A stretch of DNA of 64,000 nucleotides, from assembly GCA_031414595.1 (NCBI GenBank), contig JANNVX010000098.1:32001-96000 (forward strand), in the 5' to 3' direction. This DNA comes from Deinococcales bacterium (GTDB taxonomy: Bacteria > Deinococcota > Deinococci > Deinococcales > JAAFIG01). The translations under genes were made by a program, and so were the position numbers. The notes under the pieces were generated by a model. That model saw only the letters and a list, made by a program, of their open reading frames with translations, was not told the DNA's origin and did no database searches. How positions within the stretch are numbered: position 1 is the stretch's first letter; every line of letters begins with the position of its first letter. Positions 35,045 to 61,646 of the stretch are shown here, piece after piece.

Positions 35045-35398
35045 GTGAACCAATACCTAAATGTCTTTATCATGTTCCTTGTCGCGGCAGGCATCGGTGT
35101 GCTTGCCCTGATTGTTGGGGCAGTCCTCGGACCTAAAAAACCTTCTCGAGCCAAAAACATGAGTTATGAAAGTGGTAATGATCCCATCGGTAGCGCTCGA
35201 GAACGCTTCCCAGTCCATTTTTACTTAGTAGCGATGCTCTTTATTATTTTTGACATCGAAACCGCATTCTTTTACCCCTTGGCAGTTGCCTACAATAAAC
35301 TCGGGCTATTTGCCTTTTATGAAGCCCTAGCCTTTGTTTTCTTGGTCGGTATTGGGTACTTTTATATCCTTAAAAAAGGCATTCTGGACTGGAAATAA
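35045..35398 (+). CDS. nuoA: NADH-quinone oxidoreductase subunit A
   Basis: RBS GGAGG, GTG start; [24 protein letters not shown]. Confidence 0.95.
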
Positions 35399-35453
35399 AT
35401 CAGCTTTGAGTTATCAGCTTTGGGCTTTGAGGCAACAAAACTTAGGAGTAACA

Positions 35454-35993
35454 ATGTCAACCCTAAAAGACTTATTTGAAAAAGATGTCCAAGAACTCGA
35501 GAACGAGGGAATAGTTTTTGCGACCCTCGAGAAACTGGTGGCTTGGGGACGCAGCAATTCTATGTGGCCCATGACCTTTGGGCTTGCTTGCTGCGCCATT
35601 GAAATGATGGCATCCACCGATGCCCGCAACGACCTTGCACGGTTTGGCTCGGAAGTATTTCGGGCTTCGCCGCGTCAGTCTGATGTTTTAATTGTGGCTG
35701 GGCGTTTAAGTAAAAAAATGGCACCCGTGATGCGCCGAGTGTATGACCAAATGCCCGACCCTAAATGGGTGATTTCAATGGGCGCATGTGCCTCGAGCGG
35801 CGGCATGTTCAACAATTACGCGATTGTCCAGAACGTAGATAGTGTTGTTCCCGTGGATATTTTTGTCCCCGGCTGTCCGCCCCGCCCCGAAGGACTGATT
35901 TACGCCGTGATGCAACTGCAAAAGAAAGTACGCGGCGAAGCCATGGATGATTTTGGTACGCCCCTACCAATGGTGGAAGCATGGACAAGATAA
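35454..35993 (+). CDS. nuoB: NADH-quinone oxidoreductase subunit B
   Basis: [24 protein letters not shown]; Thermus Nqo6-like N-terminus [13 protein letters not shown]. Confidence 0.97.
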
Positions 35994-35999
35994 ATAACC

Positions 36000-36063
36000 G
36001 TAGGGGCGAGGTTGTCTTGACCCTAAACATGCACCTAGCGGGCAGGGTCGCACGCCTCGCCCT
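36000..36063 (+). repeat. GTAG-family REP palindrome with nested insert
   Basis: GTAGGGGCGAGG...CCTCGCCCT between nuoB and nuoC. Confidence 0.85.
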
Positions 36064-36078
36064 CTTTGGAGGACACCC

Positions 36079-58510: not shown

Positions 58511-58528
58511 GTTGGATGGGAGATTGGC

Positions 58529-60052
58529 ATGAATTGGGTTTTAATTGCGTTTATTTTCTTGCCGCTTCTGGCTGCCTTGCTGTCGTTACTCGTTCCAAAG
58601 GCGGCTCGAGGGCGTTTTGCAGTGCTGACTGGCTTGGTTCATTTGGCGGTGGGTGTCTACATTTGGTTGGGTGGCACAAAACTCGAGGAGTTCAGTACCA
58701 TCACCGATTGGCTGCCCGGGCTGGGTGTGAAATTCGCGGTCAGCACCGATGGTGTATCCTTGCTGCTCTCACTCGTGACTGCCCTGATGGTTCCGCTTGG
58801 GCTGTACTACCTTTCTTCTCGAGACGATGGCAAGTTATCGGCTTTTTATCCGCTTGCTCTCGCTATGCAGACTGGTATTTTAGGTATTTATGCTGCCAGA
58901 GACTTAATTTTATTCTATGTGTTCTTTGAAGCCACACTGATTCCAAGTTTGTTCTTGCTTGGGCGTTATGGTCGGGCTTCTCGAGTAAAAGCGCTGACCA
59001 CAATGGCGTTGTACACGGTTTTTGGCGGTTTATTGATGTTGGTCAGCATCATCAGTGCCAAGTTACTGACTGGTTCACCGACTTTTCTGCTCGAGGATTT
59101 GTTGCGTGGTTTGCGCTTGCCAATTGCTGATGTGACGCTTTTGTTTATCACTTTTAATCCTAAAACCATGATGTTTATTGGGTTTTTACTTGCCTTGGCG
59201 GTCAAAACCCCGCTTTTTCCGATGCACGCTTGGATGCCAGAATTTCACGCTCAAAATCATCCGAGTGGTGTAGCTGACCTGATGGGAACGCTCTATAAGG
59301 TTGGCGGCTATGCCTTGTTTCGTTTTGCCGTGCCAATGTTCCCCGATGTTGTGGCAAATGCCCAAGGTTGGCTGATGTTCTTAGCCGCCTTTACCGCCAT
59401 TTATGGCGCATGGGTGGCTTTTGCCCAAACCGATTTTAAGCGCTTACTGGCTTACGCAGGTATTTCCCACATGGGTTTGGTGGCATTGGGTGTCTTTAGC
59501 CTTCATCCTGCGGGTGCGGCTGGCGCAATGTTGCTGCTTGCCTTTCAGGGTATCTACTCGAGTGGCTTGTTCTTGGTGGTTGGGATGCTCGAGCGTCGCT
59601 TTATTGTGTTAGAAGGTGGCGATGAAAGCAAAGAAAAAGCCTTGGATCGCGCCCTCGAGATTGGGCGAGTGCGAGGACTTGCCGCAAGCGCTCCAGCCTT
59701 TGCGGGTGTGGCGCTGCTGCTCTGGTTTGCCAGTATTGGTGTTCCGGGTTTGGCAGGTTTTATTGGTGAGTACAGCATTTTACTTGGTGCATACCAAGCC
59801 AATCCGTGGATGGCGGCGATTGCGGTCACAACCGTGATTGCCAGTGCTGCCTTTGCTTTAACTGCCTACCAAAAAACATGGTACGAAGAAGCCACACACA
59901 GCGTAGCCGACCTCTCGAGACGTGAATGGACAGTGCTTATCCCAATCGTTGCCCTTGTGGTCTTGTTTGGTGTCTACAGCGCTCCAGCCCTCGAGTTGGT
60001 CAAACCCGTGGTGGCACAATTGTATGGAATTGCATTGGAGGCAAATAAATGA
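58529..60052 (+). CDS. nuoM: NADH-quinone oxidoreductase subunit M
   Basis: FYVFFEATLIP, VKTPLFPMHAW, KRLLAY..ISHMG, PGLAGFIGE. Confidence 0.95.
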   Translation: MNWVLIAFIFLPLLAALLSLLVPKAARGRFAVLTGLVHLAVGVYIWLGGTKLEEFSTITDWLPGLGVKFAVSTDGVSLLLSLVTALMVPLGLYYLSSRDDGKLSAFYPLALAMQTGILGIYAARDLILFYVFFEATLIPSLFLLGRYGRASRVKALTTMALYTVFGGLLMLVSIISAKLLTGSPTFLLEDLLRGLRLPIADVTLLFITFNPKTMMFIGFLLALAVKTPLFPMHAWMPEFHAQNHPSGVADLMGTLYKVGGYALFRFAVPMFPDVVANAQGWLMFLAAFTAIYGAWVAFAQTDFKRLLAYAGISHMGLVALGVFSLHPAGAAGAMLLLAFQGIYSSGLFLVVGMLERRFIVLEGGDESKEKALDRALEIGRVRGLAASAPAFAGVALLLWFASIGVPGLAGFIGEYSILLGAYQANPWMAAIAVTTVIASAAFALTAYQKTWYEEATHSVADLSRREWTVLIPIVALVVLFGVYSAPALELVKPVVAQLYGIALEANK

Positions 60053-60068
60053 CCCCCGTTTACGAATT

Positions 60069-60180
60069 CGTAGGGGCGAACCTTGTGTTCGCCCTGACCC
60101 TGCCTTGTGCGTACAGGGCGATGACAAGCGACCCAAGCCCGAAGGTGCTGTTTTTGCGGTCAAGAAGCATCGCCCCTACG
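60069..60180. repeat. REP doublet (REPIN/BIME-like)
   Basis: CGTAGGGGCGA...TCGCCCCTACG between nuoM and nuoN. Confidence 0.85.
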
Positions 60181-60215
60181 GTTGGTTTGGTGTTGGTTGT
60201 GACCGAGGTGTGTTT

Positions 60216-61646
60216 ATGACCCCGCCTGATGTCAATGTATTGTCGTTAATGCCTGTACTGATGGTCTTGTTCACGGCTGTTTTCGCCACGGTGTTGCCCT
60301 TTTACACCACCCGCCGTGGAATAGCTGGATTATCAGCCATGGGGCTGGTGGTGGCACTTGGTTGGACGGTTGCCTTGTGGAATCAGAACCTCTCGAGTTT
60401 TAGCGGTTCGTATGTAGCCGATAATTTTGCACTGGCTTTTAGCGTGATTCTGATTCTGGCAGGGATTGCAGCGATTGCCTCGAGTGCCGACGGAATTGTA
60501 CGTGGTGGTTCTATGCCCGCCGAGTTCTACGCGATTATGCTTTACGCCATTTGCGGCACAATGCTCTTGGTTCATGCTCGGGATTTAATTGTGATGCTGA
60601 TTGGTTTTGAAGTGATGAGCCTTGGTGTTTATATTTTGTCCAGTTTCCAAGACCGCAAGCAGTCCGAAGAGGCTGGTTTGAAGTATTTCCTCTTGGGTTC
60701 TTTTGCCAGTGCGATTTTGATTTTTGGGATTGCTTTGGTCTTTGGTGGCACGGGTTCATTTGCCCTCGAGACGATCAGAACAACCCTTGCTGGTAATCCA
60801 ACCAATACACCGATTGTGGCGGTTGGGGCGCTTTTTATTCTGATTGGTTTTGGGTTTAAGGTTGCCTTTGCGCCGTTTCATCAGTGGACTCCGGATGTGT
60901 ATTCTGGTGCGCCGATTGCCGTTACCCAGTACATGAGTGTCGGTGTCAAAGCCGCCGCATTTGCGGGAATGCTGAAAATCTTTGGTGAGGCACTGCCAAG
61001 CGTGGCGGGTTGGCAAACTCCAGCCCAGTTTTTAATTGCTTTAACCCTAATGATTGGTAATTTAGCCGCCCTTAAACAAACTAATTTTAAGCGAATGTTA
61101 GCGTATTCGAGTATTGCCCATGCGGGGTACATCGGTTTGGCGGTACTGTCCGCTCCTGCACAGGCTTTTCCAGCCGCACTTTTTTATATGGCAGCGTACG
61201 CCCTGATGAACGCTGGGGCTTTTGCGGTCTTAAACAGTATTTCACCGTCCGATGATGGGGTCAAAGTGGACAGTCTGGCTGGGCTTGGCTCGAGAAATCC
61301 GTTCTTGGCGGGGATGCTGGCACTATTTTTAATTGCCTTGGCTGGTATTCCGCCCTTGGCTGGTTTTATGGGCAAATACCTGATTTTTGCTGGGGCTGCC
61401 CAAGCTGGTTTTTATGGCTTAGTGATTCTGGCTGCCTTAACCAGTGCAGTCAGTTTGTATTATTATTTGCGTCCGGTTGCTTTAATGTGGTTTGTTGAAC
61501 CCAAAGGTTTTGCCCTACCAGACCTTTCAAGCGGTATGTCTCGAGCCGTGATGGTTGTCTGTGCGCTTGGTGTGGTGCTGCTTGGGGTTGTGCCGAGTCT
61601 GGTGACAAATTTAGTGGCTAACATCGGCATTGTTGCCTCGAGATAA
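60216..61646 (+). CDS. nuoN: NADH-quinone oxidoreductase subunit N
   Basis: RBS GAGG; EAGLKYFLLG, FKV..APFHQWTPDVYSGAP, KRMLAYSSIAHAGY, GIPPLAGF. Confidence 0.96.
   Translation: MTPPDVNVLSLMPVLMVLFTAVFATVLPFYTTRRGIAGLSAMGLVVALGWTVALWNQNLSSFSGSYVADNFALAFSVILILAGIAAIASSADGIVRGGSMPAEFYAIMLYAICGTMLLVHARDLIVMLIGFEVMSLGVYILSSFQDRKQSEEAGLKYFLLGSFASAILIFGIALVFGGTGSFALETIRTTLAGNPTNTPIVAVGALFILIGFGFKVAFAPFHQWTPDVYSGAPIAVTQYMSVGVKAAAFAGMLKIFGEALPSVAGWQTPAQFLIALTLMIGNLAALKQTNFKRMLAYSSIAHAGYIGLAVLSAPAQAFPAALFYMAAYALMNAGAFAVLNSISPSDDGVKVDSLAGLGSRNPFLAGMLALFLIALAGIPPLAGFMGKYLIFAGAAQAGFYGLVILAALTSAVSLYYYLRPVALMWFVEPKGFALPDLSSGMSRAVMVVCALGVVLLGVVPSLVTNLVANIGIVASR

Follow-up and report, generated by a model that had tools for sequence, protein, structure and literature searches.

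Introduction

Defence islands and toxin-antitoxin (TA) genes are usually pictured beside mobile elements or between operons. Extra co-oriented open reading frames (ORFs) occur in the nqo/nuo clusters of Paracoccus denitrificans and Rhodobacter capsulatus, some of them near the equivalents of the nuoF/G and nuoG/H junctions; to our knowledge these are few, of unknown function, and not described as defence or TA cargo or as varying between relatives. T4-like phages carry free-standing homing endonuclease genes between conserved essential genes, co-oriented, patchily distributed and accompanied by co-conversion of their flanks, and homing endonucleases of the PD-(D/E)XK type exist. Polyploidy and competence are both found in Deinococcus, Thermus and cyanobacteria. 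The subject of this text is the nuo operon for respiratory complex I in a Deinococcales bacterium, contained in a 64-kb stretch of DNA (the window), in which defence-like and addiction-like genes occupy four internal junctions, an arrangement that recurs throughout the family.

The part of PMC7771536 drawn on here describes tRNA-targeted additive flexible genomic islands, whose cassettes end in direct repeats of the target gene. In transformable bacteria, DNA can be joined through homology on one side and illegitimately on the other (PMC3240628, in the part consulted), and merodiploids have been made by transformation (PMC3784515, likewise in part). Uma2 proteins, which recur throughout the locus, are treated in sections of three papers: as likely solo toxins forming cassettes of paralogues (PMC2701414), as a family expanded in Thermus (PMC1274311), and as an ORF inside the Aquifex PFOR cluster that is no part of the enzyme (PMC10052474). 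A literature search, with subscription journals outside its scope, returned no report of nuo operons that contain defence or TA genes.

The genome that holds the window is designated G000 (4.49 Mb, 94% complete), and other G-numbers denote compared genomes of the order. The nuo operon of this family probably houses an old defence/addiction island which is still turning over by general recombination, with no integrase or attC-like site; changes in its arrays appear to arise from ordinary recombination at short repeats on their boundaries rather than through an integrase.

The nuo Operon and Its Inserts

An initial annotation, made from the window alone, had described a complete nuoA-N operon in order, interrupted by about 11.4 kb of extra DNA at D/E (3 ORFs), F/G (12), G/H (4) and H/I (5), with all inserts on the nuo strand, mostly tightly coupled, often AT-richer and with no terminators seen among them; each of these points is borne out. 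Pfam recovers all 14 subunit families, NuoA to NuoN, in canonical order on the forward strand (35030-61646), and the extra DNA measures about 11.3 kb with 24 genes, 24/24 in the nuo orientation (Table 1). Half of them (12/24) overlap the gene before or follow it by 8 nucleotides (nt) or less, the biggest gaps being 115 and 141 nt; a GGAG-type site lies upstream of most insert genes, and their GC content is 0.34-0.44 vs 0.43-0.55 for the nuo genes. Promoter-like and terminator-like sites inside the operon show no excess over shuffled sequence, and the sole strong terminator of the operon follows nuoN. The four filled junctions are ones without translational coupling. An 82-amino acid (aa) ORF at 47421-47669, which would be the 13th of F/G and the 25th overall, overlaps the protease gene AspP2 by 107 nt and was discarded as probably spurious; the real start of nuoE probably lies near 39519, behind GGAGG.

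The cargo as first listed (two restriction-modification (RM) pairs, PIN and HicAB TA genes, two Uma2 genes and four protease modules) is upheld by Pfam and PADLOC matches with one reservation; the first RM pair is a REase_II with its methylase, while the second consists of a methylase with an unverified partner, since the 213-aa ORF beside it, a possible REase, matched nothing in PDB, PHROG, PADLOC, Pfam or NCBIfam. As to assembly chimerism, a concern raised together with that list, Logan contigs from three DNA runs of one study, possibly including the source samples, cover 36500-56400 with zero differences; their depth is even across nuo genes and inserts (12-14, 34-37 and 44-47 in the three runs), they break solely at internal repeats and the nuoD end, and the same architecture was found in 11 further assemblies, including one single-contig genome. 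The stretch 53100-53763 has lower Logan cover in runs X1 and X2 with no bridging contig, and is not interpretable. A Logan contig joining 37957 to 38646, from the nuoD end to the final 40 nt of Uma2a with the rest of that gene skipped (one each in X2 and X4), was not used as evidence; its depth is 28 vs 36-45 for the main form, with only 38 letters on the shorter side and likeness set to 90, and it could stem from a co-occurring relative without Uma2a or from a repeat artefact.

Fixed Junctions and Varying Content

Comparison of the locus across relatives, a check proposed with the initial annotation, shows content that varies at fixed junctions. In the family, F/G is filled in 8/8 relatives (1068-3854 nt) and H/I in 7/7 (338-1233 nt), with no exception; D/E is filled in 10/11 (554-1927 nt) and empty in G010, the most divergent member, and G/H is filled in 6/8 (617-1542 nt) and reduced to 64 nt in G011 and G017. 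The outgroup set comprised 22 genomes from four other families of the order, whose operons are mostly compact: F/G is at most 97 nt in 21 of them (532 nt in G024), G/H at most 107 nt in all 22, H/I at most 186 nt in 21 (662 nt in G019), and D/E at most 149 nt in 17 and 253-523 nt in 5.

A crude ORF caller places 87/94 ORFs of the relatives' inserts in the nuo orientation, and at least three of the seven others overlie co-oriented genes and are artefacts. The families represented are Uma2, Mrr, ParE-like proteins with an antitoxin, HicAB, PIN, protease pairs, AAA_21 with DUF4276, and DinB; Mrr (Mrr_cat) occurs in G001 only, and AAA_21 with DUF4276 in G015 and G017 only. In the latter two, the AAA_21/AAA_15 ATPase and DUF4276 genes lie just upstream of nuoG (L014 7858-9575 and L015 2777-4529), a pair type that we take to be PARIS-like. 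At D/E, Uma2 adjoins the upstream core gene in 9/11 relatives, as it does at infA and ccmE in the operons described below.

Inherited Content

A tree of 24 Uma2 proteins yields five orthogroups, each confined to one junction and most of them spanning genera. Between genera g1 and g5 the aa identity of Uma2 is 80-86%, compared to 82-85% for NuoD and 70-74% for NuoC, NuoE and NuoG. Uma2 is under strong purifying selection and its nuclease residues are invariant in 20/22 sequences; the active site of Uma2a is divergent, with PE for PD and no SDSTL. The HicBA pair, the lipoprotein gene, the H/I protease pair and the gene HTH144 are likewise found at matching junctions of other genera or species, at identities similar to those of their flanks; the HicBA orthologues of G013 stand at 75% and 60%, with the pair also kept in G018, and HTH144 of G006 is 72% identical in protein and 78% in DNA, the same as the flanks. 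The RM pair shows 82% DNA identity between G000 and G003, again like its flanks.

A further sign of residence is the palindrome CTCGAG, which occurs 23,235 times in the G000 genome, a 24-fold excess over base-composition expectation, and 5.5 times per kb in the window. The inserts match the nuo genes in CTCGAG density (5.3 and 6.1 per kb, respectively) and are for this reason considered native to this gene pool; their lower GC content is therefore no mark of recent import. All three codon frames contain the palindrome (61/31/33 across 26 genes). Its excess is a trait of the family, with 4.0-6.5 copies per kb in nine family loci vs 0-2.7 in nine loci from other families. In G000 there is strong avoidance of other 6-bp palindromes (CTGCAG 51, GTCGAC 26 and TTCGAA 29 copies). 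The excess presumably resembles the cyanobacterial HIP1 phenomenon; the literature search, within the scope given above, found no paper on CTCGAG as an iterated palindrome. On these comparisons much of the insert content is old and inherited along with the operon.

Recent Turnover and Boundary Repeats

Between G000 and G003, Uma2a is 87% identical at 92 fourfold sites, compared to 57-62% for nuoC to nuoG. The identity profile of the two genomes has a background of about 84%, from which an exchanged tract of about 0.9 kb stands out, with 90-100% identity in 60-nt windows and about 95% overall; it starts near 37780, within the 3' end of nuoD, and stops at 38689, exactly at the Uma2a stop codon, with unrelated genes beyond. 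All Uma2 genes, whatever their orthogroup, have a conserved 3' stretch of about 40 nt, and the right end of the tract lies there. The sister species G005 (nuoE-nuoF 94.5% identical) does not have the RM cassette found at 41455-43470 in G000; there, an orf75 homologue begins 5 nt after nuoF, and the F/G array holds a different RM pair and another small-ORF pair. The RM cassette of G000 is flanked by a short duplicated ribosome-binding site (RBS) region. Taken with the inherited content, these differences suggest that the island is both old and recently turned over.

The F/G arrays are punctuated by a repeat of 34-60 nt at every cassette boundary, with 10 copies in three species (G000 and G005 with four each, G001 with two); its core begins in the final codons of the preceding gene, takes in the stop and extends to an A-rich stretch ahead of the next RBS. 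Unrelated cassettes are separated by it, namely protease pairs, three different RM/methylase cassettes, Uma2 and Mrr, and within the G000 genome it was found at the F/G array only. Two copies of the repeat are 98% identical while the proteases before them are about 29% identical in protein, and the ORF of AspP2 terminates within a copy, on the TGA of that repeat. At H/I of G000, each protease pair is followed by a repeat of the final 26 nt of nuoH together with spacer, RBS and start, and the AspP4 ORF ends within such a partial copy, or ghost, of the nuoH 3' end, in the nuoH frame. A 60-nt ghost of the nuoH 3' end also follows the protease pair of G011, and in G013 the interval from HicBA to the lipoprotein gene holds two ghosts, one of the nuoH 5' end and one of the nuoG 3' end. 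The boundary repeats are specific to their junctions, being copies of local gene ends rather than one shared recombination site. In this family NuoH extends by a C-terminal tail of about 45 aa past the Pfam domain, the end of which is the piece duplicated at the H/I boundaries; NuoH matches in other families stop at residues 322-360 of 374. A motif at 41627-41650 resembling the nuoH 3' end was considered as a moved boundary and rejected as chance, since its position falls within the coding sequence of the REase and about 0.5 matches are expected by chance (a rough figure, based on the number of CTCGAG sites in the genome).

The initial annotation had proposed an integron-like but integrase-free cassette array that makes use of conserved flanking homology. 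The use of flanks fits the G000/G003 tract, which starts in the nuoD 3' end, and the ghosts of nuoG and nuoH; the integron likeness holds insofar as the F/G repeat punctuates arrays in three species, and fails in that neither an IntI nor attC hairpins were found. All six boundary stretches searched for attC-like hairpins (6/6) fold no better than shuffles (z -0.65 to +0.52), and the repeat search gave no inverted repeats at cassette boundaries. As claimed, no integrase, transposase or recombinase is present in the window, the HTH_Tnp_1-like protein having an HTH domain only. The recombinase search proposed for the rest of the genome yielded five tyrosine recombinases, none near the integron-integrase cut-off; the best reaches 63.8 bits on TIGR02249 (cut-off 265), and no integron integrase was found in the genome at its 94% completeness. 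A gene with a TfoX_N domain, a possible competence regulator, lies at 9465-9809 (-) in the window.

Embedded Modules in Other Operons

nuo is the most heavily loaded operon found, but the habit also occurs in the ccm and ribosomal-protein operons on a smaller scale. The ccm operon of G000 (L019, contig C64, 6451-7521) has co-oriented Uma2, YefM and YoeB genes between ccmE and ccmF; within the genus this gap is about 1075 nt in G000 and G003, about 590 nt in G005, G006 and G007, and absent in G002 and G004. The same operon contains a 109-aa ORF between ccmA and ccmB. The spc/alpha ribosomal-protein operon (L055, contig C93, 3351-4350) has co-oriented Uma2, YefM and YoeB genes between infA and rpmJ, with the Uma2 shortened to 158 aa; the distance from SecY to RpoA is 4513 nt in G000 vs 3480-3712 nt in six family genomes, and of the 7 family genomes in which one contig carries both markers, G000 alone has the module. 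Compared to G003, G006 and G011 the insertion is a precise 1038 nt right behind the infA stop, with no long duplication. The ccm and ribosomal-protein modules were considered as recent copies of each other, which was rejected because their DNA aligns poorly outside yoeB. A PIN pair lies in a P-II operon, the V-type ATPase operon has no internal inserts, and 27 PIN genes in the genome exceed the Pfam cut-off.

Origin and Movement of the Inserts

In the preferred reading, the insert genes would be transcribed from the nuo promoter. Gain, loss, duplication and exchange of cassettes would result from two processes, homologous recombination and homology-facilitated illegitimate recombination, probably following natural transformation or else between copies of the chromosome. 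Homology arms may be provided by the nuo gene ends, the conserved 3' end of Uma2 and the 34-60 nt junction repeat. Each addition would leave behind a duplicate of the boundary upstream of it (gene 3' end, stop codon, spacer and RBS), so that every gene would keep its stop and RBS and the polycistron would stay intact. Several points weigh against this account. The mechanism is read from footprints only, and junction-specific orthogroups with patchy presence may fit differential loss from a large ancestral array equally well. Boundary duplication is no constant of insertion, because the infA/rpmJ insertion is precise and without a long duplication; mosaic identity at other nuo gene ends was sought and dismissed, as only weak dips were found (nuoE 5', nuoH 3') that weaker constraint also explains. 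PIN-type TA genes lie in co-directional runs at 7/24 loci, which by a crude ORF caller is no clear bias. The relatives are metagenome-assembled genomes (MAGs), many of them fragmented and, as kin, not independent, and the gap sizes in them are extrapolated from tblastn matches.

The Uma2 proteins might themselves drive insertion as free-standing homing-type endonucleases, each cutting the empty form of its own junction so that repair inserts the gene, co-converts the flank and carries TA and defence neighbours along. This is unlikely, although the tie of each of the five orthogroups to one junction, the position of Uma2 next to the upstream core gene at D/E, infA and ccmE, the precise infA insertion without duplication, the one-sided co-converted tract in the nuoD 3' end, the retention of nuclease residues under strong purifying selection, and the Uma2 ORF inside the Aquifex PFOR cluster (PMC10052474, in the part consulted) would all agree with it; the three ccmE/ccmF states (empty, about 590 and about 1075 nt) also suggest that Uma2 came first and the TA genes second, from size only in the case of the 590-nt state. 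Vertical descent with loss explains the junction specificity equally well, however, and plain homologous recombination explains the tract; the copy that was exchanged, Uma2a, is the one with the divergent active site, the H/I and G/H arrays have no Uma2, no target site was identified, and the cleavage activity is putative. The F/G repeat at every cassette boundary in three species, between unrelated cassettes, and the direct repeats that flank single modules at H/I and G/H could instead point to a true site-specific cassette system, in which one of the five tyrosine recombinases elsewhere in the genome, or another unlinked recombinase, acts in trans on junction repeats as att sites. The chance of this is slim: the repeats differ between junctions and copy local gene ends, none of the six boundaries folds better than shuffles, the best integron-integrase score is far below its cut-off, the window contains no recombinase, and the infA insertion has no repeat.

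A slimmer chance attaches to a purely ancient array, fixed in the family ancestor and decayed by differential loss, with no ongoing gain and no landing pad. Orthogroups common to genera at the same junctions, the flank-like identities of HicBA, lipoprotein, AspP, HTH144 and RM genes, and the native CTCGAG density of the inserts are what it would predict; the synonymous-site identity of Uma2a far above that of its flanks is not, nor are cassettes limited to one or two species (Mrr in G001, the different RM pair in G005, AAA_21 with DUF4276 in G015 and G017), the ribosomal-protein operon insertion unique to G000, or two junction-repeat copies so much more alike than the proteases beside them. 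Least credible is that some inserts are lineage-specific accessory factors of complex I, acting in assembly or regulation and neither selfish nor defensive. Six relatives retain the lipoprotein-like gene between nuoG and nuoH and one more MAG has an ORF of equal size there, the proteases embedded in nuo group in a single clade apart from the genome's two other copies, and Uma2 is as conserved as NuoD; against such a role stand the RM, TA and nuclease families with PADLOC defence-candidate matches, the patchy presence (G/H empty in G011 and G017, D/E empty in G010), and the same module types in the ccm and ribosomal-protein operons. A bolder form of the preferred reading, doubtful but deserving mention, would see here an integrase-free cassette system that uses essential operons as arrays, with RecA-type recombination at duplicated boundaries, Uma2 homing-type nucleases that open junctions and seed arrays, and hosts that are presumably polyploid and transformable; because the boundary encodes a stop codon and the next RBS, promoter-less cassettes could be added, swapped or deleted without breaking the polycistron.

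Cargo Genes and Neighbouring Features

By family matches, several known or candidate defence families cluster in the island, the PDC families being candidates (Table 1). The PIN protein exceeds the Pfam cut-off, whereas its NCBIfam VapC match falls below; the 92-aa ORF upstream overlaps PIN by 4 nt and matched no family in Pfam, NCBIfam or PADLOC. HicB has a weak UPF0150-like match (1.4e-3) and lies upstream of HicA with a 4-nt overlap. The count for the lipoprotein-like ORF between nuoG and nuoH, 6 relatives by sequence and one further MAG by size alone, is made up of the sequences of G001, G003, G006, G013 and G018, two weak matches in L047, and a 202-aa ORF in L048.

AspP1-4 have weak Pfam aspartyl-protease matches, but 4/4 match PADLOC PDC-M52B at 1e-18 to 1e-27. 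The AF2 model of AspP1 (pLDDT 92) has as its best PDB match 5c9f, a Rickettsia retropepsin-like protease (TM 0.71), followed by Ddi1 and retroviral proteases. A DSGA motif is present in 7/8 aligned AspP sequences, including all four of G000; the retropepsin-like gene at F/G of G003 (L003 10737-11147, -) has ATGA where other copies have DSGA, and the catalytic Asp is therefore missing in that copy. None of the 4 small ORFs upstream of the AspP genes matches any PADLOC model (E 0.01), the A component of PDC-M52 included, and complex prediction of AspP with its own upstream small ORF scored 0.00, which speaks neither for nor against binding. G000 has six retropepsin-like genes, four of them in nuo, and the nuo-embedded copies of all genomes form one clade; a profile search with the 4 AspP sequences returned 8 loci, of which the nearest three, all from Deinococcales MAGs, have the gene at nuo H/I, and the rest are distant.

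A REP-like hairpin element of which the genome has about 16 copies (fold -36.6 kcal/mol, z -3.35) lies in three gaps between nuo genes; one copy precedes a second NuoD-like gene cluster, on contig C109 of G000. Outside the operon, the window contains a C5 cytosine methylase with an NgoBV-type REase (18843-20844) and an AAA_21 ATPase with a RloB-like protein (4055-5951).

Table 1. Features of the nuo locus, in window coordinates; the inserts are followed by their genes and boundary repeats.
Feature	Position	Strand	Details
Promoter-like site upstream of nuoA	34968-34996	+	TTGTTA-17-TATAAT, 10/12 matches; consensus match only
nuoA, nuoB, nuoC, nuoD	35030-37959	+	Pfam Oxidored_q4, Oxidored_q6, Complex1_30kDa, Complex1_49kDa
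REP-like 84-nt hairpin element	35992-36075 (B/C gap), 56009-56092 (J/K), 58460-58504 (L/M)	+	Direct repeat families D4/D5
D/E insert	37960-39479	+	About 1.5 kb, 3 ORFs
Uma2a, 240 aa	37964-38686	+	Orthogroup DE3; Pfam Uma2 4e-12, PADLOC PDC-S03
Uma2b, 191 aa	38677-39252	+	Pfam Uma2 2.5e-32, PADLOC PDC-S03; PD..E..K residues kept
87-aa ORF	39239-39502	+	No Pfam, NCBIfam or PADLOC match; no homologue in relatives at 1e-5
nuoE, nuoF	39480-41455	+	Pfam 2Fe-2S_thioredx, Complex1_51K
F/G insert	41456-48033	+	6.58 kb, 12 ORFs
Type II RM cassette: REase 324 aa, N6_N4 methylase 304 aa	41571-43456	+	PADLOC REase_II 8e-87, MTase_II 1e-93
orf75, orf92, PIN toxin (VapBC-like module)	43545-44496	+	Pfam PIN 1.3e-12; homologues in G005, G011
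F/G junction repeat, copy 1	44485-44518	+	PIN 3' end, stop codon, downstream bases
Small ORF 64 aa, retropepsin-like AspP1 134 aa	44535-45142	+	PADLOC PDC-M52B 4.6e-22
F/G junction repeat, copy 2	45135-45187	+	Family D2; 98% identical to copy 4
N6_N4 methylase 331 aa, 213-aa ORF	45204-46837	+	Methylase: Pfam 7e-41, PADLOC MTase_II 3.7e-64
F/G junction repeat, copy 3	46847-46899	+	
Small ORF 70 aa, AspP2	46893-47527	+	PADLOC PDC-M52B 1.1e-27
F/G junction repeat, copy 4	47520-47572	+	
122-aa ORF	47669-48037	+	No family; 35% homologue at equivalent place in G003
nuoG	48034-50406	+	Pfam
G/H insert	50407-51801	+	1.40 kb, 4 ORFs
Lipoprotein-like ORF, 213 aa	50407-51048	+	Signal peptide and Cys; no named family, only unnamed Atlas clusters
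Ghost of nuoG last 42 nt	51078-51119	+	90% identical; after lipoprotein gene, ahead of hicB; family D12
HicB, HicA	51123-51496	+	Pfam HicA_toxin 6.7e-9 (over cut-off)
Phd/RelB-like antitoxin, 73 aa	51540-51761	+	Weak match, without toxin; in G001 the homologue is followed by a ParE-like gene
nuoH	51802-52926	+	Pfam NADHdh spans residues 11-328 of 374
H/I insert	52927-54769	+	1.84 kb, 5 ORFs
Small ORF 70 aa, AspP3	52952-53577	+	PADLOC PDC-M52B 1.8e-18; 56% orthologue at H/I of G011
Ghost of nuoH 3' end with spacer, RBS, start	53581-53648	+	87% identical to 52901-52968; family D1
Small ORF 73 aa, AspP4	53632-54272	+	PADLOC PDC-M52B 1.2e-26
Third copy of nuoH 3' end	54247-54272	+	Common to G006, ahead of HTH144
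HTH144, 144-aa HTH_Tnp_1-like DNA-binding protein	54297-54731	+	Pfam 3.5e-8; HTH domain only, no catalytic domain
nuoI, nuoJ, nuoK, nuoL, nuoM, nuoN	54770-61646	+	Pfam
Intrinsic terminator-like hairpin after nuoN	61661-61691	+	14 pairs

Comparison With Known Systems

The family-wide use of four internal junctions of an essential respiratory operon bears on how selfish and defence genes persist, as deletion of such genes risks the operon and a promoter of their own is unneeded; if expression is indeed coupled, the dosage of defence genes would follow respiratory gene expression. It also bears on gene movement without dedicated recombinases, by way of conserved flanks and duplicated gene-end boundaries, and on the role of the widespread and uncharacterised Uma2 nucleases. 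Filled and empty junctions in sister species, an exchange tract with defined ends, and a junction repeat common to three species provide testable material.

The free-standing homing endonucleases of T4-like phages differ from the present case in that the locus lies on a bacterial chromosome and the cutting of empty sites by Uma2 is putative. Homology-facilitated illegitimate recombination, so far as the consulted portions of the sources cited above describe it, is matched by one end anchored in nuoD 3' homology, another that is short or non-homologous, and a duplicated boundary; here the process is read from footprints in an uncultured organism, in which only a TfoX-like gene was seen. Compared to the additive islands, as presented in the part of PMC7771536 drawn on, the target is the 3' end of a protein-coding operon gene instead of a tRNA, and no integrase is seen.

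Integron arrays resemble the locus in their promoter-less, co-oriented cassettes behind one promoter, a boundary repeat (at F/G), varying order and content, and TA cassettes; they differ in that the inserts here have no IntI, attI or attC hairpin, the repeats are duplicated gene ends that include a stop and RBS, and the cassettes are interleaved with essential genes. Defence islands and hotspots are alike in the clustering of RM, Mrr, TA, PDC-S03, PDC-M52B and AAA_21 with DUF4276 genes, and in content that varies between the same core genes; unlike these, the present island shows no integrase, tRNA or mobile-element hallmark, much of its content appears to be inherited with the operon, and it occupies four junctions inside one essential polycistronic operon, where all of its genes are co-oriented and no promoter or terminator signal was detected.

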